Shown here piece by piece: positions 21,773 to 32,721 of a DNA stretch of 44,047 nucleotides (the stretch's first letter is position 1; every line of letters begins with the position of its first letter). Source of the DNA: a virus (taxonomy: Duplodnaviria > Heunggongvirae > Uroviricota > Caudoviricetes). The position numbers and the translations under genes were made by a program. The stretch lies in IMG/VR virus record IMGVR_UViG_2671180473_000014; one strand, written 5' to 3'. The notes under the pieces were generated by a model. That model was given only the letters and a program-made list of their open reading frames with translations, was not told the origin of the DNA and did no database searches.

Positions 21773-23230
21773 TTAGGAGCGCCAAAAAAAACCTGAAAAC
21801 AATATAATAACAGGATAAATTTCAAGGCGACCAAGAATCATAGCTATGCACATTAAATATTTTGCAATGTCATTAAGCACTCCGAATGACGATGCAGTAG
21901 CCCCAAAACCTAATCCCATATTATTAATACATGCAGCCACTGTTGCAAATGATGTAAGAAAATCATATCCCATACCATTTAACACCAGTATAAAAAACAC
22001 CGTGAAGAGAGTATAAAGAAAAAAGAAACTCCATACAGACCTCATTACACGATCTGTAACTATCTTCCCTCCTACATTTACACTCAACAACGCTCTGGGA
22101 TGAGAAAGCTGATTTATCTCGTGTTTGCTTTGTTTGAAAAGTATAAGAAATCGAAGTGACTTAATTCCACCACAGGTTGAACCTATACATCCCCCAAAGA
22201 AACTTGACAACAGCAAAAACACTATCGTGTGCGTGGGCCAGTTTGCATAATCCTGCGTAGCTAAACCATTATCAGTGAGCATGGAGCTGGCAAGAAAAAA
22301 CGAATGAATAAAACTTCCATGCAAGTCATACATACCTATATGCCAGACCTGGAAAGAGGTAACAATGATCACCCCTAAGGCTATTAACAGAAAGAAACGA
22401 AGTTCAATATCTCTGATTAAAGGTTTTATCGTTTTTCTGCTAATAACAATATACCAAAGAGTGAAGTTGAAAGCCGATAGCAGGGAAAAAGAACCAGCCA
22501 CCAGCTCAACCAAATAGTTATTAAAATATCCGATACTCTCGCTATGAGTTGAGAAACCACCAAGCGAAACTGTGGAAATCCCGTGACAAATAGCATCAAA
22601 CAAAGGCATTCCTGCAAGTCTATAACAGACAATACAAGCAATACCTAATAAAGAATAAGTTATCCACAGTGTCCGTGACGTATCGGCCAGGCGGGGAGTG
22701 AGTTTGTCATCCTTAAATGGCCCCGGCATTTCTGACTGATAAAGCTTTGCACCACCAATACCCAATAATGGCAATACTGCAACCGCCAGAACAATAACTC
22801 CTAAACCACCTATAAAATTTAACTGTGACCGATAGTACAAATATGCCCGAGGTAATGAACTAACATCATCAATTACAGTTGCTCCTGTTGTTGTTATTCC
22901 AGAAACCCCTTCAAACAGAGCATCAATGAACGTTAAATTAAGTTCTGAGTCAATCCATAAAGGGAATGCACTAATAACAGAAAACAAAATCCAAAACATT
23001 ACAATTATAATAAACCCATCACGGGTACGTAATTGAATGCCAGATTTCTTAGTTGTATACCACGCTCCGCCACCAATGCAAAAAAATATAACGAAAGTTA
23101 TAAAGAAAACGAACAGGCTTTTTTCTTTATAAAACAATGCTACAACCATTGGTGGCAACATTGAAAGACTATAGAGCCAAACCAGGAACCCACACATATG
23201 AGTAACAACTCTTACATGAGATGTATTCAT
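21773..23230 (-). CDS. trkG: Trk-system potassium uptake protein TrkG (TrkH/KtrB family)
   Basis: 485 aa from MNTSHVRVVTHMCGFLVWLYSL...; multi-pass membrane protein with the GIGGAK / GLGFG-type selectivity-loop motifs; known Rac prophage cargo gene; AT-rich relative to its flanks. Confidence 0.9.
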   Translation of the reverse strand: MNTSHVRVVTHMCGFLVWLYSLSMLPPMVVALFYKEKSLFVFFITFVIFFCIGGGAWYTTKKSGIQLRTRDGFIIIVMFWILFSVISAFPLWIDSELNLTFIDALFEGVSGITTTGATVIDDVSSLPRAYLYYRSQLNFIGGLGVIVLAVAVLPLLGIGGAKLYQSEMPGPFKDDKLTPRLADTSRTLWITYSLLGIACIVCYRLAGMPLFDAICHGISTVSLGGFSTHSESIGYFNNYLVELVAGSFSLLSAFNFTLWYIVISRKTIKPLIRDIELRFFLLIALGVIIVTSFQVWHIGMYDLHGSFIHSFFLASSMLTDNGLATQDYANWPTHTIVFLLLSSFFGGCIGSTCGGIKSLRFLILFKQSKHEINQLSHPRALLSVNVGGKIVTDRVMRSVWSFFFLYTLFTVFFILVLNGMGYDFLTSFATVAACINNMGLGFGATASSFGVLNDIAKYLMCIAMILGRLEIYPVIILFSGFFWRS

Positions 23231-23367
23231 ATCTAAATATTCTTTCAATTATAACCACCTTGCTGCAATATTATGATTATACTGTATAAAATTTAACTCC
23301 TCTTAGATCTTACTTCACTGTTCCTTATGAAACAATCATCAAAATGAATCATATTGTAGTTAAGATT

Positions 23368-23675
23368 TTACTTTAAACACTGCTCGGTTATGTATTGCTG
23401 AGCACCTTCAAGTTGGGCCTGCATCATTACCAGTCGTTCCCGGAGGGTGAAATAATCCCGTTCAGCGGTGTCTGCCAGTCGGGGGGAGGCTGCATTATCC
23501 ACGCCGGAGGCGGTGGTGGCTTCACGCACTGACTGACAGACTGCTTTGATGTGCAACCGACGACGACCAGCGGCAACATCATCACGCAGAGCATCATTTT
23601 CAGCTTTCGCATCAGCTAACTCCTTCGTGTATTTTGCATCGAGCGCAGCAACATCACGCTGACGCATCTGCATGT
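23368..23675 (-). CDS. Rz: Spanin inner-membrane subunit Rz (partial; N-terminus lost in N-run)
   Basis: ...MQMRQRDVAALDAKYTKELADAKAENDALRDDVAAGRRRLHIKAVCQ... matches the lambda Rz C-terminal two thirds. Confidence 0.85.
23427..23612 (-). CDS. Rz1: Spanin outer-membrane lipoprotein Rz1 (embedded in Rz, +1 frame)
   Basis: MRKLKMMLCVMMLPLVVVGCTSKQSVSQCVKPPPPPAWIMQPPPDWQTPLNG...; lipobox VVGC and proline-rich body, nested entirely inside Rz. Confidence 0.85.
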   Translation of the reverse strand: MRKLKMMLCVMMLPLVVVGCTSKQSVSQCVKPPPPPAWIMQPPPDWQTPLNGIISPSGNDW

Positions 23676-24039
23676 NNNNNNNNNNNNNNNNNNNNNNNNN
23701 NNNNNNNNNNNNNNNNNNNNNNNNNNNNNNNNNNNNNNNNNNNNNNNNNNNNNNNNNNNNNNNNNNNNNNNNNNNNNNNNNNNNNNNNNNNNNNNNNNNN
23801 NNNNNNNNNNNNNNNNNNNNNNNNNNNNNNNNNNNNNNNNNNNNNNNNNNNNNNNNNNNNNNNNNNNNNNNNNNNNNNNNNNNNNNNNNNNNNNNNNNNN
23901 NNNNNNNNNNNNNNNNNNNNNNNNNNNNNNNNNNNNNNNNNNNNNNNNNNNNNNNNNNNNNNNNNNNNNNNNNNNNNNNNNNNNNNNNNNNNNNNNNNNN
24001 NNNNNNNNNNNNNNNNNNNNNNNNNNNNNNNNNNNNNNN
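23676..24039. other. Assembly gap (364 N) across the endolysin 3' end and the Rz 5' end
   Basis: Run of n characters. Confidence 1.
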
Positions 24040-24425
24040 TTGATATCGCCCTGGTTTATTTTGCGAAGAAGCGTCGATGTTCTGAAATTGCCAGCGCCCA
24101 CGTTGTAAACGAACGAGTAAAGAGCGCCGCGCGTTGTTTCCGGTATATCGACTTTGATGTACGGGTTAATTTGTCTGGCGACAGTGGCAAGGTCTTTATT
24201 CAAGAGTGTTTTGCATTCTGCTTTGGTATACGTTTTACCGAGCATGATGTCTTTTCCTGTATGCCCGTGACATACAGTCCATACACCAACAATATCTTTG
24301 TATGGTATGTAGCTGACACCTTCCAGACCATCGTTACCACTTGGGCCAGTGATTAACACTGATGCTATAGCAATTGCTCCGCCACCAATAGCAGCAGCAA
24401 CGACTTTTCGTAATGATGGAGGCAT
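24040..24425 (-). CDS. R: SAR endolysin (P21 R-type lysozyme; partial, C-terminus lost in N-run)
   Basis: [57 protein letters not shown]...; N-terminal Gly/Ala-rich signal-anchor-release segment followed by a T4-lysozyme-type catalytic region. Confidence 0.85.
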
Positions 24426-24640
24426 TATTCACCTCTCGCAGCCTTGCGCTTATCTTCTTTAATCTTGAAATAAAGGTTTGTCAGGTACGTCAGCAGGCCA
24501 AATACCAGACTACCCAGCACACCGATTGCAGCCCACTGTGACGGAGTTACTCTATCGAGCAACTGTAAAAACCAGTAGCCAGCACTGCCTGCGGAGGTGC
24601 CGTAGGCAATGCCTGTTGAAATTTTGTCCATGGATTTCAT
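24425..24640 (-). CDS. S: Pinholin S (phage 21 S-type) with dual-start motif
   Basis: [71 protein letters not shown]; two in-frame ATGs (24638-24640 and 24629-24631) giving antiholin and holin forms; strong SD GGAGGTGA upstream; TGA/ATG-coupled to R. Confidence 0.85.
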
Positions 24641-24891: not shown

Positions 24892-25287
24892 CTAACCTCG
24901 CATGTCAAAGCCAGATTTCTGAAAATCTCTGTAGACTTCCGGATTGTTGAAGGCCGGAAATTTGGCTTTATGAGCTGCGGACTTTATCGCTTCGCAATAG
25001 GCTTTATCACCGTTACTGGTAGATATTTTTAACGCCGTGCCATCCTGAGAGAATTCCATATGCAACCTGCATTTTTTCCCTTTCCAGTTATGCGGCTCAT
25101 CAAGTTTGGCATTAATTGCAGCTCTGATTCCCCGCGCTTGCGCCCCCCATTCATCCTGATCATCCCAGCGTCCTGAACTGCAACTACCTGTAGCAGTAGT
25201 TTTGTGGCAATCTGAAGGGTGTAAAGGTGTGCATCCCGCAACAAAACCGACCCAAAAAGTCAACATAACGATTTTCTTTAATCCCAC
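24892..25287 (-). CDS. Lipoprotein with TolA C-terminal (domain III)-like domain, paralog 2
   Basis: Signal peptide plus lipobox (MGLKKIVMLTFWVGFVAGC, GTG start with GAGGAG SD) and C-terminal region ...GIRAAINAKLDEPHNWKGKKCRLHMEFSQDGTALKI...KFPAFNNPEVYRDFQKSGFDMRG, collinear with the TolA C-terminal pattern. Confidence 0.6.
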   Translation of the reverse strand: MGLKKIVMLTFWVGFVAGCTPLHPSDCHKTTATGSCSSGRWDDQDEWGAQARGIRAAINAKLDEPHNWKGKKCRLHMEFSQDGTALKISTSNGDKAYCEAIKSAAHKAKFPAFNNPEVYRDFQKSGFDMRG

Positions 25288-25437: not shown

Positions 25438-25866
25438 TCAGGGTTTAAAATCCAGCACCCCATTTTGAAATACTTTATATACTTCCGGCGAAGGGGGGGC
25501 AGGTATATCAGCATTCTTTATCGCATTCATCGCTTCACGACATAAATCGAGGTCTCCACTTTCTCTTTTAACCTCCAGTAGAAGGCCATTCGGGGCCATA
25601 TGCATTCTCAGTGTACACTCTTTTCCTGAATACTTACTCGCATCCCCGAACTGTTTTTCGATGGCGCTCTTGATTTGATGGGCATACAGACGGATATCCT
25701 CACTAACATCAGAAGTACGTTCAGATGAACTCACATACTGTGTCTCTATTGCTTTATCGGAGTAATATGATGTACGGTCATGATAATTTGTCGATACAGC
25801 ATCAGTGCACCCGATAATAATCCCACTAATAATCAACGTAAGAATTGATGCGCTACGAAAACCCAT
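25438..25866 (-). CDS. Lipoprotein with TolA C-terminal (domain III)-like domain, paralog 1
   Basis: Lipobox IIIGC; C-terminal 80 aa YAHQIKSAIEKQFGDASKYSGKECTLRMHMAPNGLLLEVKRESGDLDLCREAMNAIKNADIPAPPSPEVYKVFQNGVLDFKP closely resembles the E. coli TolA C-terminus as recalled (...YAGQIKSAIESKFYDASSYAGKTCTLRIKLAPDGMLLDIKPEGGDPALCQAALAAAKLAKIPKPPSQAVYEVFKNAPLDFKP). Confidence 0.7.
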   Translation of the reverse strand: MGFRSASILTLIISGIIIGCTDAVSTNYHDRTSYYSDKAIETQYVSSSERTSDVSEDIRLYAHQIKSAIEKQFGDASKYSGKECTLRMHMAPNGLLLEVKRESGDLDLCREAMNAIKNADIPAPPSPEVYKVFQNGVLDFKP

Positions 25867-26803
25867 TTTTCCTCACATATGTCATATAGTAAAGGATTAT
25901 ATATACCGTTGTTTTGGACGCTCAAACAGCGAATCAGATCAAATAAAACGCACATTTGTTAACATTTACACAAAGTCTGCGTGGGATATTCTGAAAGAAT
26001 ATCCATAATGTGGAGAGAATCTATTGAAGTGCATGGTGCCGGGTGCCTCCCGGTGAACAAAATGTTCGTGATACCTGTCGGCGACAGAAAAGGTTAATGG
26101 TATCACCCCACCGCACAGGGGGATTCACCATGCAGGAGTTTTCTTAGCAAACTCACTGCGCGCCCGGCAACTCCCAACCACATAAAATGCGGAGTTTGTG
26201 GCATTTATGCATATAACTCGCAGGAATTATCTTAAAAAACTGATGTCGATCCGGATTAAAAAGAAGCAGGTCATCATCAGATGACTGGAAAAAAGGAAAA
26301 CAAAAAATACTCATCATACAGTTTTGATTGCAGGGATGAGCCTGCTATGCACAATATGCAGAATATAAGCAAGATAAAAATATGCAGGCATATTATTTCG
26401 GATCTTGTTATTAACACAACCTTTTTAATAATCATTTGGCATACAATAAACCAGCCCAAAAAGAACCGCCTAAACAGGCGGTTGGTCAATACAAAGGATG
26501 CTTCGTCTTTATTATAGTAATCTGAGGCGTCGGGTGTCTTGTATCAGACAACATATTGTCCCGCTAAACAGCGAATTACAAACCACCCTGCAATGATCTC
26601 TCATCTCATTTTATATGAGTTGACGACATCAGGATAACGCATCATCAGCCCCTGCCAAGAAATATCAAAACTCCCGCCAGCAATGTGTTATCACAATATT
26701 GTAAAAAAAACACAGCACCGAAACTATAACTGGTCTCTGTTATAATTTGGAGCAGAAAGACCAGTTGCCCAACTAGCAGCATTCTCCCCTGCTTTCCTGA
26801 CGT

Positions 26804-27453: not shown

Positions 27454-27740
27454 AAATGACCTTTCTTTCTCCAGATTTCTTGTGTGCGAAAAACCCCTTC
27501 AGCATGCATCAGGCGCAATTCTTCTTTGGTGTAATCGCTGGTTTTTACCCGCCCGTCGATTAGATCGTGGCATGAGCTACAGGCTATCGCCGCCTGCATA
27601 TCATGTGGTTTTGTCGCTGTTCCGCACGTCCCCGCCAGCCTGTAATGCGCCAGCACAGAGGTTTCGGGATTGTGATTGCAGTAGCCAGGGATTCTGATCT
27701 GGCACATCTGGCCTTTAGCCGCTTTACGTAAATTCACCAT
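27450..27740 (-). CDS. YbcO-like (DUF1364) putative Zn-binding nuclease
   Basis: 96-aa ORF MVNLRKAAKGQMCQIRIPGYCNHNPETSVLAHYRLAG...ACSSCHDLIDGR with the Cys pattern and N-terminal motif recalled for DLP12 YbcO. Confidence 0.6.
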   Translation of the reverse strand: MVNLRKAAKGQMCQIRIPGYCNHNPETSVLAHYRLAGTCGTATKPHDMQAAIACSSCHDLIDGRVKTSDYTKEELRLMHAEGVFRTQEIWRKKGHL

Positions 27741-28339
27741 TACGCAAACTCCAGTAGTTGTGCGGCCACATTTTCAACTTCCTCCTGAGAGGAGAATTTA
27801 CGGAACAGAATCCAGTTCCACAGCACATTCAGTACAGATTTATAAACCTGCTGAAACTCGACTTCGTCCATATTCGCAAAAGCGATGGATTTTGCCCGAC
27901 GCCCACGGCTACCGTCCGGATAAATATGCTCGGTGTAAAATCCGGCCTGAATGGTTACCCACTCGCGGAAAGCCTCAAACGACTTTAGCAACGCCGTATC
28001 CCGGGTTCTACGAGTCGCAACGGTGTTAAGGTATTGCTCTGCGGCATCACTCAGGGCTGGCGTGTGTTCCCGACCAACTGATTCGCACAGGTAATCAACG
28101 AAACCAGACAGCAGTTCTCGTTCGCGAGGCGTGATCGCCCCACCGACCGGAGTCCAGTAATCGAATCCCAGTTGCAGGAGTTTGAAAAAACGCTTGTGGA
28201 ATGCGTAGTTACGCACACGCTTAAAGTCTGCGTGTATCCACTCACCTATTTTGATTTGATGCAGAAAATCGCAACTCTCCGGCGTCGCCGGGAGAAGTAA
28301 ACCAGAAGAGGTTTGTTTGACCAGTTGTATATGCGCCAT
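27740..28339 (-). CDS. nin-region phage protein (DUF1367-like)
   Basis: 199-aa ORF MAHIQLVKQTSSGLLLPATPESCDFLHQIKIGEWIHADFKRVRNYAFHKRFFKLL...; ATGA-coupled to the YbcO-like gene; family assignment from memory only. Confidence 0.4.
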   Translation of the reverse strand: MAHIQLVKQTSSGLLLPATPESCDFLHQIKIGEWIHADFKRVRNYAFHKRFFKLLQLGFDYWTPVGGAITPRERELLSGFVDYLCESVGREHTPALSDAAEQYLNTVATRRTRDTALLKSFEAFREWVTIQAGFYTEHIYPDGSRGRRAKSIAFANMDEVEFQQVYKSVLNVLWNWILFRKFSSQEEVENVAAQLLEFA

Positions 28340-28619
28340 TTCTCAATCTCTCGATGGCGCAGCGCAGCAGATGCCAGTTGTTCAGGCTGACGAATAAAGT
28401 ATAAATAAACTGGCTATGGTGTAAAGCCCCACATAGCATGAACAAACACTACATATCAAATAGCTGGTACAAGGATAGAAATACGACACTTATTATTAAA
28501 AACGATTAGATAAATTACATTTTAATGTTATGCAAAAGTTCTTTTTTATCATAACATTTCAATAAAAGCATTACAGATGCAATCATCCCGTCATCATCAA
28601 TTATTTAAGGTGGTTAAAC

Positions 28620-28706
28620 ATGGAAAATAACAAGTTCGCACATCTCGCTCCTTTTTTATCCGTAATCCTTTTCGCTTGTTGTTTTATATGGGCATTATTT
28701 TTATAA
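28620..28706 (+). CDS. Small hydrophobic peptide (28 aa), candidate membrane peptide / toxin-like ORF
   Basis: ATG at 28620 preceded by AAGGTGG Shine-Dalgarno at good spacing; translation MENNKFAHLAPFLSVILFACCFIWALFL (one predicted transmembrane helix); lies in the AT-rich island. Confidence 0.3.
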   Translation: MENNKFAHLAPFLSVILFACCFIWALFL

Positions 28707-29110
28707 AGTAGCCACATGATAAGTTGCTGGAATCATATTTCCCACTCAAGTCATTAACATTTGATAAGATATATCTAAAAGGACGCCTTTACATTATTTA
28801 TGCGTATATAATTTATTTATATACACAGTAAAGGTATCCTGGGAAAATATTTATCGTTAAAAAATACATCATAAATAATTAAGCTGAAATTTCAGAACAC
28901 AACTAATACACACAATAAGGTTCAGTAACAGTAATCTATGTGGACTACATCGAGATTTTTTGATTAAACTTTAATAACTTATTCCTAACACACAGAATGC
29001 ATAAACTAAAAGTAAAACAAATAGTTATACGAAAAACAACCATATTTATTCTATCTTCTCCTCTAATCAACATATCAATTATGTGTTTCATAACAGCTTG
29101 ACATAACCCT

Positions 29111-29141
29111 CCAAAAGATGCATTTTTAATGCATGTTTTGG
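29111..29141 (+). promoter_or_regulatory. Imperfect 31-bp palindrome resembling an NsrR operator, overlapping the promoter of the yeaR-like gene
   Basis: CCAAAAGATGCATTTTTAATGCATGTTTTGG; core AAGATGCATTT-T-TAATGCATGTT (29115-29137) versus the recalled NsrR 11-1-11 consensus AAGATGCATTT-n-AAATGCATCTT; TTGACA at 29098-29103 upstream and SD GGAGGAGGTGG downstream. Confidence 0.5.
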
Positions 29142-29152
29142 AGGAGGTGGTT

Positions 29153-29491
29153 ATGACACACAAGAGAATTCCTAAAGATTGGGTAATCAAACGCTCAACT
29201 CCGTTCTTCACAAAAGAGAACGTACCTTCAGCGTTATTAACACATCATAATACAGCAGCAGGTGTTTTTGGGCAGTTGTGCGTAATGGAAGGCACTGTAA
29301 CATATTATGGTTTTACTGATGAGAATGCTACTGAACCGGAGATAAAAGTAGTCATTAATGCTGGCGCTTTTGCAACAAGCCCACCACAATACTGGCACCG
29401 TGTTGAACTAAGCGATGATGCTCAGTTTAATATTAACTTTTGGGTCGCTCCAGACTTTTCGGGCGAAAAAGTCTATAGCACCAAAAAATAG
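29153..29491 (+). CDS. YeaR-like DUF1971 protein
   Basis: 112 aa from ATG 29153 (MTHKRIPKDWVIKRSTPFFTKENVPSALLTHHNTAAGVFGQLCVMEGTVTYYGFTDENATEPE...PPQYWHRVELSDDAQFNINFWVAPDF); pattern RSTPF...VM.G.V.Y.G..DE..EP...AG.FA..PP..WH..E..DD..FNI.F.VAP shared with E. coli YeaR as recalled. Confidence 0.6.
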   Translation: MTHKRIPKDWVIKRSTPFFTKENVPSALLTHHNTAAGVFGQLCVMEGTVTYYGFTDENATEPEIKVVINAGAFATSPPQYWHRVELSDDAQFNINFWVAPDFSGEKVYSTKK

Positions 29492-29520
29492 ATGATCATA
29501 TTAAAAATGCTTTAACAGTC

Positions 29521-29560
29521 AGACCCGGCAGGGCTATCCCCGACGGGTCTCATTTTTGTA
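29521..29560 (+). terminator. Intrinsic terminator after the yeaR-like gene
   Basis: AGACCCGGCAGGGCTATCCCCGACGGGTCTCATTTTTGT: GC-rich stem (GACCCG.../...CGGGTC) followed by a T-run, 30 nt after the stop codon. Confidence 0.5.
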
Positions 29561-30111
29561 AATATATTGGTTCTACATTGACAGGAGACTTCAACCATAA
29601 GAAGTAATCTGAATACTTGAGCAATAAATTTACTTAAGATTAATGAGCGCACCTTGCCGGACAAAGATAAACCAAGGTAACACCTTTTTTCTAGCCAGTA
29701 TGTAATCAATCAGAAAGCCGCTCCATAAGAACAACAGCAAGACAATAAATTGCCATTACAGCCGCAATAGCCAGCGCACATTTGAGAACCAGCACGACAA
29801 CCCCCTGTATTAGACGCACACCAGTCCTGATAAATATGAGGCTGTCTCGTCAGTGATTCAATACAACTATTGGGTATAGTTTCTGTGATTTTATTCTGTA
29901 GAAATGGAACACAACAACCAGTCACCACCAGCACTTCCTTAAATGCTCTAAGTCAGAAACAAGCCAACATTTTAGTCCGCTTTGAGCGATCTGCAGACAT
30001 TGCTAGCAGCCTTCTGTGTGAATTCTCAGGGAGCAGGTCGGCATAGCATCACGTTGAGGCTCTTACCCTACTTGTTCACACCAACCCTAACTCCACAGAC
30101 TGATTCATAAA

Positions 30112-31113
30112 TTAGTAATCTGCGTGTTTCGCACTTTTCAGAAATGCTTTCATATTTTCATTAGGTCGCTCAATTTCGAAGTTACTTCCATATAACTCTT
30201 GTAATTTTGGCCATAACTTACTTAATAACCCTCTCCTGCGATAAAATGGATGTATCCAAACGGTAGATAGGTACGGAGAATTTGCATTTGAATTGTTTAT
30301 TGTGACCAGCCCAACTAAACATTGTCGATAACCACTATTATCCATTGATTGTATTTCTTCGACGAATGGATACGCGATTACATCAGTCCAACCATGATCG
30401 GTTGTATCCCATTGCATTCCGTCATGACATTCCTTCGACTGATAGCGGCGTAAAGCTACACACGCGAGCTTTTGCCAATCTGGAGAATTAATTGTGATCT
30501 CTTCATCGTATGACGCGCCTATTGGAGCGGGTATTGGTCTGATTAATCCAGCATGGCATTCATCATAGAACTTCATGTTTCCCTCAGAAACGTTGTGTAC
30601 GTTGGGTTGCTCCATGTGTGCGCCATTCAAAAATAGCTCTGATAGTAGTGTATCTACACTGTAATCTTTATTGATTATTGTCGGCTTAGAGTTTTTCTTA
30701 TTAAGGCCGCGAGTAACGATTTTTTGATCAATGTTAACAACATGGAATAATCCGTCGGGGAGGCTAGCGAACCACGATGGGGCATCGGACCAGAATAGCA
30801 TGCCTTTTGTACTTCTTAAGAGTTTAATTAAGTTAATACAAGCTTCTTCACTAGTCTTGCCGTTGATGCGAAGTATGTTAGGACTAAAGTAATATTCATC
30901 CATATCAGGGAATGCAGCTTCGCAAAACTCCTGTACATAATTTAGCACCTGGATTCTACAGAGATCATCATAGCTGGTAATAACTAAGGGGGTATCTTCA
31001 TTACTATTATGATTATCAATAATGCAATCTATAGCGAGACTTACTGCTTTGCGTATCACTTCAGTTGAATCTAACGACTCTAAAAATTTTGTCTTTCGTG
31101 TGCGAATATCCAT
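30112..31113 (-). CDS. Hypothetical protein B (333 aa) of the AT-rich two-gene operon; C-terminal region weakly GNAT-like
   Basis: ATG 31111-31113, 15 nt after the stop of gene A; C-terminal ...CLVGLVTINNSNANSPYLSTVWIHPFYRRRGLLSKLWPKLQELYG resembles an acetyltransferase beta4-alphaC core (R-x-x-G motif), imperfectly. Confidence 0.55.
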   Translation of the reverse strand: MDIRTRKTKFLESLDSTEVIRKAVSLAIDCIIDNHNSNEDTPLVITSYDDLCRIQVLNYVQEFCEAAFPDMDEYYFSPNILRINGKTSEEACINLIKLLRSTKGMLFWSDAPSWFASLPDGLFHVVNIDQKIVTRGLNKKNSKPTIINKDYSVDTLLSELFLNGAHMEQPNVHNVSEGNMKFYDECHAGLIRPIPAPIGASYDEEITINSPDWQKLACVALRRYQSKECHDGMQWDTTDHGWTDVIAYPFVEEIQSMDNSGYRQCLVGLVTINNSNANSPYLSTVWIHPFYRRRGLLSKLWPKLQELYGSNFEIERPNENMKAFLKSAKHADY

Positions 31114-31128
31114 GTATGACCTGCGCTA

Positions 31129-32151
31129 TTAAAATTCATGAATGAACGGTTTGTCATCTGGTTGCAAAATGGTGGTTTTATTCGTTGCTACATTTAAACT
31201 GTTGTAGAGCATAATTGCCAGGTTCGATGCATTTTCAATCAGCGTTTCAAGATCCTGGTCTGTAATCACTACGAGGTTCCCTTCTTTATCCTTTCCACCA
31301 CGATGCACTAAGTGATTTCGATTGAGGGTTGCCAATTCAATAGCTTCTATCGGACAGTCTTTTTGTACTTTTATATCGAATGTAGCTTCATAGCGGTCGA
31401 TTACCTTTTTAGTGCTATGCCAGCTTGCACTGATCAAGTGTTCCTTGATTGACCTGATTAGCTCTCCCCTAATTTTCTCGATGGGTTCACCCTTGAAAGG
31501 CAACGCAGCAATATCTTTGCTTACTTTAAATTCAGTCTTACCTTTTTCTATACAATTGGCTATGTAGACATCATCTTTCTCTATAGAATTAATGAATAGC
31601 TCAACATAAAGCGTTTCCAAAGCTGTAATAACATTCGTGTAGAGCAAACTAAGCAAGTGGTTTTTTTGCTGTTGTTCAGTTTTATCTTTTGCAAGTTTTT
31701 TTATTTTATCGATATTATCAATGAATTTTAAATACGGATTACCGGAAGACGTTACAGCGTCGTAGATATCATCATCGTACCAATCATCTATATTATTTGA
31801 GTTTCCAGACCAGTCAAAACATTGTGTTTGTAATTCATCTACTAATTCCTCAATATACTCAGATTTAACATATTGACCGAAGATGGATTGTAGTTCTTCG
31901 CTCGCATCATACGGCCCGCCATATATGTAAGCATAGCCACCTTCTCTACTTTCATACGGACAAGCATTTGCCGGATCTTCAAAGTTTTCAAAGAACCAGT
32001 TTTTCATTACTTCGAGTTGATCTTTTTTGCTTATGTATTTTAAAGATTTTAGTGGAACTTTCTTTCCATTAACCTCGAAAACAATTTTCACGATGTAACG
32101 CTCCCTTGTATCAATTGCGCAACTATTATACCACAGCGAAATACAGGGCAT
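31129..32151 (-). CDS. Hypothetical protein A (about 340 aa) of the AT-rich two-gene operon; lone R-x4-H (HEPN-like) motif near the C-terminus
   Basis: Likely start ATG 32149-32151 with AGGAGG Shine-Dalgarno 6 nt upstream (MPCISLWYNSCAIDTRERYIVKIVFEVNGKK...); the ORF track extends it to 32220 via an upstream alternative start; contains ...ELATLNRNHLVHRGGKD... Confidence 0.55.
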   Translation of the reverse strand: MPCISLWYNSCAIDTRERYIVKIVFEVNGKKVPLKSLKYISKKDQLEVMKNWFFENFEDPANACPYESREGGYAYIYGGPYDASEELQSIFGQYVKSEYIEELVDELQTQCFDWSGNSNNIDDWYDDDIYDAVTSSGNPYLKFIDNIDKIKKLAKDKTEQQQKNHLLSLLYTNVITALETLYVELFINSIEKDDVYIANCIEKGKTEFKVSKDIAALPFKGEPIEKIRGELIRSIKEHLISASWHSTKKVIDRYEATFDIKVQKDCPIEAIELATLNRNHLVHRGGKDKEGNLVVITDQDLETLIENASNLAIMLYNSLNVATNKTTILQPDDKPFIHEF

Positions 32152-32289
32152 AACCTGCCTCCTTAAACTAACATACCATGAGCCAGCAATGTCCGCTATT
32201 GGCACAAAGCGGACAACCACGCTAGCTCTCCCCTGTGCCAGAAAAATGTCAATTTACATATGAACTAATGCTCTTTGATCTAGTAACGT

Positions 32290-32706
32290 CTATAAATACC
32301 GAAGATTTCCTTGATAAAATGCCAGTACACGTTTCATAACTTCACTCTTCCGGCACTCGCGACAGATTATGTTCTGACGCCTGTCATAGCGGCGTATTTC
32401 TCCGTCTGGTAATGACCAGATAAGGTCAGGATCAACCACAACCGTTTTTTTCACCTTTGCCCTGGATAGTTTTTTGCGGGCGTTTTTCCAATCCTTACGA
32501 GCCTGTTCAGACGGGAATAACCCATAGCCAGAGTTGTATACATCGCCACTGGCAACCAACTCTCTGGCAAGAATGCTCATCAGATATCTTGTCGCACCTG
32601 TCTTGGCCTCCAGTTGCCTTAACGTCTCGCGCCCACTCTGGCGTACCAACTCAACAACCTGCTCCTTAATTTTTTCACGCTCTTCCTGTGTAAAAACTTT
32701 TGCCAT
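32290..32706 (-). CDS. Hypothetical HTH / winged-helix protein (138 aa)
   Basis: ATG 32704-32706 with GGAGG SD; MAKVFTQEEREKIKEQVVELVRQSGRETLRQLEAKTGATRYLMSILARELVASGDV...; normal GC content, flanks the AT-rich island. Confidence 0.5.
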   Translation of the reverse strand: MAKVFTQEEREKIKEQVVELVRQSGRETLRQLEAKTGATRYLMSILARELVASGDVYNSGYGLFPSEQARKDWKNARKKLSRAKVKKTVVVDPDLIWSLPDGEIRRYDRRQNIICRECRKSEVMKRVLAFYQGNLRYL

Positions 32707-32721
32707 AAGCGCCTCCGGCAA

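Follow-up and report, generated by a model that had tools for sequence, protein, structure and literature searches.

In this report, we describe an accessory slot in a tailed-phage genome of 44,047 nucleotides (IMG/VR record IMGVR_UViG_2671180473_000014, Caudoviricetes), which is a Rac-like lambdoid prophage of Escherichia coli and which is called, over its full length, the window. The slot lies between the genes lygF and irsA and is filled by an AT-rich island at positions 28340-32289. We consider it probable, if far from certain, that this island is a stack of three exchangeable modules and that its two-gene cassette, encoding the proteins A and B, is a candidate defence system in which A would act as an abortive-infection RNase and B as its accessory. 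Among the functions considered for the A/B pair, anti-phage defence is the most likely. What is new here is modest but concrete: a delimited, putatively defensive hotspot in the ren-ninB interval of Rac- and Qin-type prophages, with a candidate system that joins a PF18870-HEPN protein to a GNAT protein. An unannotated, conserved gene for a 29-aa peptide and a predicted NsrR-type operator on a phage-borne yeaR-like gene are also new.

The early-right operon of the prophage runs on the minus strand in the order ydaU, ydaV (DnaC-like), ydaW (DUF1627), and lygF, and past the island it goes on with irsA (DUF1367), ybcO, and a DUF1133 gene for a Q-like antiterminator. By the PHROG names of its flanks, the slot is the equivalent of the ren-ninB interval of phage lambda, and a first-pass annotation made from the letters of the window was right to place an AT-rich cargo island between the nin region and the replication module. 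The island has a guanine-plus-cytosine (GC) content of 0.376, against 0.456 for the window, and lies near the minimum of all windows of 3,950 bp (the lowest, at 28401, has 0.374, and 0.6% are as low as the island). Codon usage is clearly non-uniform as well: GC at third codon positions is 0.35 in A, 0.36 in B, and 0.35 in the DUF1971 gene of the island, and 0.47-0.61 in the seven flanking genes for Q, ybcO, irsA, lygF, ydaW, ydaV, and ydaU.

Alignment to related Rac-like prophages showed other cargos between identical flanks. Three of these prophages (L002, L003, and L004 in our numbering of loci) are identical to the window from 27400 to 29989-29998 and again from 32185-32188, and therefore the true variable cassette is 29990-32187. 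The DUF1971 gene and its AT-rich leader are common to the window and these three prophages. Canonical Rac (strain 442/2) has nothing in common with the window from the end of irsA (28339) to lygF, and holds rem, hok/mok, and small open reading frames (ORFs) in the slot instead; the leader is absent from it. Only lygF and a block at 29691-29989 are common to the window and three other elements, namely phage Evi, phage Tritos, and a Qin-type prophage in strain S88. In other words, the AT-rich block seen at first is real, but it is not one unit. Among 5,426 complete E. coli genomes, the 300-bp block occurs in 1,718 (about 32%, and never annotated), the DUF1971 module (28340-29690, at >=80% coverage) in 450, the A/B cassette (at >=99% identity) in 211, and the full arrangement of 6.2 kb in only 12-14. 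Because the prevalence differs from module to module, the island is best seen as three stacked modules with separate histories. The earlier suggestion of stacked morons is thus borne out, with at least three independently distributed modules, and the island as a whole is far from universal among relatives.

To define the range of cargo, we took 80 IMG/VR contigs with a close relative of lygF, of which 31 also have irsA downstream. Together with the window, these gave 32 lygF-irsA intervals of 1.7-5.3 kb. Grouped at 90% reciprocal coverage, the intervals make up 17 configurations. Several alternative cargos match PADLOC defence systems: a type II restriction-modification system (L120), Tmn (L117), the three-gene 3HP (L125), NsnABC (L134), AbiLi/AbiLii (L154; AbiLii marginal, E 8e-4), and a BstA-like gene (L149). 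The remaining cargos are unassigned or non-defensive, such as DUF1971 and a QueH-like gene that was recognized by eye from a sequence motif. In E. coli chromosomes, the slot also holds a "4-fold beta flower" gene together with one that encodes 471 aa, a pair of genes for 347 and 106 aa, or a gene annotated "chaperonin". By its conserved flanks and changing cargo, the lygF-irsA slot is a prophage defence or moron hotspot in the working sense of the term. It is known in kind: the slot is the Ren-like/NinB-like interval, and the region between replication and antirepressor genes has been described as a usual accessory-gene site in lambdoid prophages (PMC13043305). The hotspots of P2/P4 prophages and satellites (PMC9122126) and the moron slots of lambdoid phages are similar in having conserved core flanks around variable, low-GC cargo that is rich in defence and that also occurs on plasmids and in other phage types. 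The present slot differs from the P2/P4 hotspots in its phage family (Rac- and Qin-type lambdoids) and in its position (Ren-like/NinB-like), and some of the slots have related palindromic elements of 24 nt on both sides. Rac- and Qin-type prophages are the commonest class of lambdoid prophages in E. coli, and the sharp and reusable boundaries can serve for mining further cargo.

The palindromic elements deserve attention. The longest inverted repeat of 29900-32300 is a 46-nt imperfect pair, 72% complementary, which lies astride both breakpoints of the cassette, and each arm holds an element of the form GTCCGC-N12-GC(A/G)GAC. Such a pair also flanks other cargos (L004-L006, L009, L159, L181, L185, and L191), and in L003, L117, and L125 the strict pattern is present on one side only. 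Where different cargo types are compared, the similarity toward lygF sets in precisely at the element. No simple target-site duplication was seen at the cassette edges. Phages may swap cargo by recombination within the conserved flanks, the inner edges of which are these elements; the elements themselves may be recombination handles, hairpins for RNA processing or insulation, or just the ends of what is conserved in the flanks. A structured terminator was also considered for the 3' tail of the cassette (29985-30111, minus strand), and this was unsupported (z +0.44). It should be mentioned that about 45 bp at the 3' end of the cassette (29990-30040) recur with 90-95% identity, in intergenic DNA that carries no annotation, on many enterobacterial plasmids that are unrelated to one another, including IncHI plasmids and Pantoea megaplasmids, and may be a small dispersed repeat.

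Protein A starts at a GTG codon, which is backed by PGAP and by homologues. Its N-terminal part matches HEPN/RES N-terminal domain 1 (PF18870) with 22.2 bits and an E value of 1.9e-4, where the Pfam cut-off is 27.4 bits, and the same family is matched by all 26 sampled homologues of A at E<=0.01 (best 1.3e-5). The RiboL-PSP-HEPN family (PF18735) is matched by nine of these 26 (best 1.3e-8), and several carry a precomputed PF18735 assignment; A of the window gave no match to it at E<=0.01. The residues that are invariant in 72 aligned homologues include E159, W224, H225, and R258-x4-H263-R264, and the motif R258-N-H-L-V-H263 is the Rx4-6H RNase signature of HEPN proteins. In the model of A, the C-terminal domain is a four-helix, up-down HEPN bundle. 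By motif and by predicted fold, A is thus a putative member of the HEPN superfamily. Protein B is predicted to have a GNAT fold in its C-terminal domain, with the acetyl-CoA-binding beta4-alpha3 motif, preceded by an orphan N-terminal domain. Searches of A and B against the NCBIfam profiles gave nothing useful. The acetyltransferase toxins TacT, AtaT, and ItaT have about 170 aa and a ribbon-helix-helix/DUF1778 antitoxin; B differs from them in its length of 333 aa, in its orphan domain, and in its partner, which is a HEPN protein, with no DUF1778 present.

The two genes are co-oriented on the minus strand, as was first proposed, and are separated by a spacer of 15 nt. Every A at >=96% identity has B downstream. 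The order and the exact spacer are kept in Serratia grimesii, in Aeromonas (A 87% and B 78% identical), and in a metagenomic contig (A 78% and B 74%). DNA similarity to the Aeromonas locus (86%) spans 32150-30070, that is, the promoter, A, and B, and this locus adjoins a gene with a weak TIR_2 match and SIR2/STALD genes. In three Aeromonas contexts (L198-L200, 3420-3836), a conserved gene of unknown family, encoding 138 aa, lies 165 bp upstream of the pair; it was considered as a homologue of lygF and is not related to it. The cassette carries its own predicted promoter of the extended -10 type, and no separate promoter for B is apparent. The conserved order and spacing from E. coli to Aeromonas speak against the view that A and B are unrelated morons that merely travel together, A being a solo HEPN protein and B an acetyltransferase of small molecules or proteins that serves lysogenic conversion or host physiology. 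We regard this as unlikely, although it is the strongest of the alternatives. Both families do occur alone in many genomes, each gene has been lost independently of the other, and unrelated morons are stacked elsewhere in the same island. In particular, the A family on viral contigs is mostly solo: 11 homologues at 56-74% identity have neither B nor any co-oriented downstream gene, copies of A at 77% and 74% identity are solo, and distant relatives of A are morons in Mu-like phages. Genes for about 325 aa downstream of distant A homologues were considered as diverged copies of B and are Mu-like protease I or YqaJ. On the other hand, "solo" copies of B (86% identity) keep the last 16-20 codons of A upstream, and B would have no promoter of its own, as noted above.

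Natural disruptions of the pair bear on a further possibility, by analogy with the type VII toxin-antitoxin system HepT/MntA, in which the MNT protein AMPylates the HEPN protein. A might be a constitutively toxic HEPN RNase that B neutralizes by acetylation, so that the pair would stabilize the prophage or plasmid by addiction and have no part in phage defence. The two-gene operon with its spacer kept across genera fits such a system, as does its presence on plasmids near partition, stability, and other toxin-antitoxin genes. A is disrupted and B intact in a Providencia plasmid, in L094 and L106/L107, and in AHB12, where A is truncated; in E. coli, four of 209 genomes lack a near-full-length match to A, and all 209 keep at least 80% of B. 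However, in strain SF-173, B is split by IS1 while the A protein is identical and intact, and in strain MB56 an IS3 element lies between A and B. The SF-173 case weakens the proposal that B is an obligatory antitoxin. Homologues of A at 56-77% identity are found without B and without a co-oriented downstream partner, homologues of B occur without A, and neither an MNT domain nor a DNA-binding antitoxin domain is present. In contrast to HepT/MntA, the partner here is a GNAT-fold protein, no MNT nucleotidyltransferase lies in the cassette, A has an extra N-terminal domain, and at least one natural strain can dispense with B. Addiction is therefore rather improbable in our view. Because the loss of A or of B singly is tolerated, the pattern is closer to an effector that is off by default and has a facultative accessory partner than to a classical toxin-antitoxin pair.

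We therefore return to defence. The cassette of 2.2 kb would be expressed from its extended -10 promoter and would provide A as a default-off abortive-infection RNase, in which the putative PF18870 domain at the N terminus would sense the infection or gate the effector. On detection of a superinfecting phage, the C-terminal HEPN domain (Rx4H) would cleave RNA and the cell would be arrested. B, co-transcribed with A, would not be an obligatory antitoxin; as an accessory acetyltransferase, it would modulate the system or extend it. No description of the A/B pair was found in the literature by RefSeq accessions or under systems of HEPN plus GNAT. Two known systems are the closest functional analogues of A, which is a member of neither family. 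The first is HepS (STM14_3211) of the Salmonella prophage Gifsy-1, a solo HEPN abortive-infection protein encoded in a lambdoid accessory slot; this anticodon nuclease is switched on by a tail-tip protein and cuts the anticodon loops of tRNAs (PMC13043305). Both HepS and A are prophage-borne HEPN proteins with the Rx4-6H motif, encoded in an accessory slot after the lambdoid replication genes. HepS works without an obligatory partner, and its host tolerates it; homologues of A are likewise mostly solo. A falls outside the HepS family, which is defined by homology to STM14_3211 and by a stand-alone protein of <250 aa. The second is aRES, a stand-alone protein of PF18870 and RES that protects against phage by NAD+ degradation (bioRxiv 10.64898/2026.01.28.702374). 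It has a PF18870 N-terminal domain, as A putatively does, and joins this domain to a toxic effector in a single protein, the layout also proposed for A; it occurs in defence islands, and its defence, with growth arrest, is validated (bioRxiv 10.64898/2026.01.28.702374). In A, unlike aRES, the putative effector is HEPN, with no RES domain by Pfam, and the PF18870 match is sub-threshold. If A does defend, the PF18870 domain would be a portable driver of RES effectors, as in aRES, and of HEPN effectors alike, and its trigger would become a tractable question.

A more elaborate form of this proposal is that A and B are a two-component immune module of a kind not described before, an acetylation-controlled HEPN system. 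A GNAT protein with a family-specific sensor domain would license or restrain the PF18870-HEPN RNase, or would acetylate a phage or host target in parallel, and the paired 24-nt elements would be dedicated sites of recombination or insulation, so that the slot would be exchanged through them and not by generic homologous recombination. We think this combination doubtful, about as much so as addiction.

Several observations weigh against a defensive A/B pair in a slot of this kind. The match of A to PF18870 is below the Pfam cut-off and A itself has no PF18735 match, and a profile search of the PDB with the A alignment found no sequence relative. A and B, as well as the DUF1971 protein and LygF, gave no match at E<=0.01 to PADLOC-DB 2.0. 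In marine gammaproteobacteria, B stands alone by housekeeping genes (PolA and a beta-lactamase-family gene), a setting that is not defence-like, and some slot cargos, such as the QueH-like and DUF1971 genes, are not defensive. The -35 box of the DUF1971 gene has no good -10 hexamer after it and was not listed by a scan for consensus promoters. That scan, which gave no excess of promoters, passed over the extended -10 ahead of A as well; both signals were read by eye. Finally, the cassette is co-oriented with early-right transcription and could serve the phage's own lytic programme.

This last point is the basis of another view, that the cassette serves the lytic cycle or counter-defence of the prophage, for example, by degradation of host RNA by the HEPN protein and inactivation of a host factor by the GNAT protein, both from the early-right transcript. 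The cassette follows the replication genes and the Ren-like gene directly and in the same orientation, which agrees with this. However, the cassette is carried by non-phage plasmids and by a chromosomal Aeromonas locus next to TIR- and SIR2-domain genes, it appears to have its own promoter, and the slot is otherwise occupied by defence systems that protect the host, so we find a lytic role quite improbable. The cassette is found in the Qin-type prophage slot of S88, is also carried by UTI89 and APEC O1, and occurs on IncF and other plasmids; the candidate is present in about 4% of complete E. coli genomes, and its carriers include the extraintestinal pathogenic strains UTI89, S88, APEC O1, and IHE3034 and the type strain ATCC 11775. 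Its low GC and about 0.8 kb of AT-rich DNA without a conserved ORF might suggest that the island is junk in decay, silenced by H-NS and with ORFs that arose by chance. This is effectively refuted: about 205-209 genomes have intact copies of A and B at >=99% identity, the two ORFs are kept down to <40% identity with invariant residues of catalytic type, and both give confident AlphaFold2 folds.

Table 1. Features of the lygF-irsA slot and its flanks (positions in the window)
Feature	Position	Strand	Description
irsA	27740..28339	-	Pfam DUF1367, E 6e-98; phrog_319 "NinB/Orf recombination mediator"; nin-side flank, kept in all related loci
Leader of the DUF1971 module	28340..29097		Untranslated; AT-rich, GC about 0.30; small ORFs not kept
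TTGACA -35 box and NsrR-type palindrome	29098..29137	+	Predicted, read from the sequence
DUF1971 (YeaR/TehB-N-like) gene	29153..29491	+	112 aa; Pfam PF09313, E 2.6e-26; PGAP start; phrog_34268
Intrinsic terminator of the DUF1971 moron	29521..29560	+	Predicted; -19.4 kcal/mol, z -2.47, followed by a U-run
Conserved 300-bp block	29691..29989	-	Nin-side edge of the variable slot; blastn 91-96% to L005, L006, L009, L117, and others
ORF for a 29-aa hydrophobic peptide, MLVLKCALAIAAVMAIYCLAVVLMERLSD	29706..29795	-	Unannotated; Shine-Dalgarno sequence 5 nt upstream
Left inverted-repeat arm	29962..30007		Holds GTCCGC-N12-GCAGAC (29975-29998); across the left breakpoint 29989/29990
Variable cassette (promoter, A, B, 3' tail)	29990..32187	-	Rare part of the island
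B	30112..31113	-	333 aa; orphan N-terminal alpha/beta domain and predicted C-terminal GNAT-fold domain
A	31129..32091	-	320 aa; putative HEPN/RES N-terminal domain 1 and predicted C-terminal HEPN domain, invariant R258-x4-H263
Predicted expression signals of the cassette	32101..32133	-	Extended -10 TGGTATAAT (32133-32125); Shine-Dalgarno AGGGAG (32106-32101); ahead of GTG at 32091
Right inverted-repeat arm	32182..32227		Holds GTCCGC-N12-GCGGAC (32191-32214); similarity between cargo types resumes here
lygF	32290..32721	-	Pfam DUF977, E 3e-31; phrog_142 "Ren-like exclusion protein"; replication-side flank

The other two modules of the island, together with the palindromic elements and the nature of A and B, go in part beyond the first-pass annotation. 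The yeaR-like gene on the plus strand, which it had recognized, encodes a DUF1971 protein; its start is corrected to the ATG at 29153, which has a strong Shine-Dalgarno sequence ahead of it, and not 29129, and its GC content is 0.41. The terminator that had been proposed downstream of it is well supported by folding energy (Table 1). The module is present in four of the 17 slot configurations. With its promoter-like box, terminator, distinct composition, and presence or absence among relatives, it has the predicted layout of a textbook phage moron. A perfect TTGACA stands at 29098-29103, and between it and the ATG lies a palindrome of the NsrR 11-1-11 type at 29115-29137, AAGATGCATTT-T-TAATGCATGTT, that is, AAGATGCATTTTTAATGCATGTT, whose core ATGCAT-N5-ATGCAT occurs once in the window. 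The 23-mer is identical at 20 of 23 positions to the ytfE site AAGATGCATTTAAAATGCATCTT, which ranks first in strength among the NsrR 11-1-11 sites given for E. coli CFT073 (PMC5320621, Table 4), and chromosomal yeaR is an NsrR target (PMC5320621). These observations suggest that the gene may be under the control of NsrR or nitric oxide and would be expressed from the lysogen under nitric oxide or nitrosative stress. It shares the DUF1971 domain with the NsrR/NarL-regulated yeaR-yoaG operon of E. coli and has the NsrR-type palindrome just upstream. Unlike yeaR-yoaG, it is phage-borne and monocistronic, with its own terminator and without yoaG.

The leader of this module is a part in which the earlier proposal did not hold. 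A small-peptide ORF had been expected on the plus strand, and both candidates (28724-28831 and 28997-29101) are not kept as ORFs in related copies, where the frame or the start codon is lost or where only non-synonymous changes are found. The GC content of 28340-29128 is 0.305. The first 370 bp or so of the leader, next to irsA (28340-28720), are found unannotated in about 366 other E. coli genomes at 76-78% identity, which suggests an older, diverged, conserved non-coding element that adjoins the irsA start.

The second of the stacked modules would be the 300-bp block with its gene for a 29-aa membrane peptide. This block lies in the 550 bp or so (29561-30111) that had been taken for non-coding DNA, and its conserved ORF is on the minus strand. 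The block is spread over several lambdoid phage types and is usually located just upstream of hokD. In Evi, Tritos, and the S88 Qin-type prophage, it adjoins hokD or a Hok-family gene, and in Qin/DLP12-like prophages it likewise lies next to hokD. Changes of the ORF in relatives are mostly synonymous: 12 nt differences in L186 give three conservative amino acid changes, six in Evi (L005) give one, and three in S88 (L009) give one. The peptide has no family match in NCBIfam or PHROGs, and could be a small membrane protein or a peptide like the type I toxins. The peptide gene and the putative NsrR-type operator are small additions and are cheap to test.

A few observations elsewhere in the window may be added. 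The Rfam scan of 26-34 kb found nothing above noise inside the island, and its one match, to the small RNA STnc100, lies downstream of the Q-like gene (26001-26163, minus strand) and scores 78 bits, which exceeds the gathering score. Two genes with a TolA C-terminal domain (24892-25287 and 25438-25866, minus strand), located between the antiterminator and holin genes, are possible morons for superinfection exclusion or colicin tolerance. Measured over 1 kb at a time, local GC falls to its lowest values in the window (0.28-0.30) over the Rz, lysozyme, and holin region (23001-24500), which is a second compositional anomaly. After the lysis cassette comes a trkG-like gene for a TrkH potassium transporter (21773-23248, minus strand).

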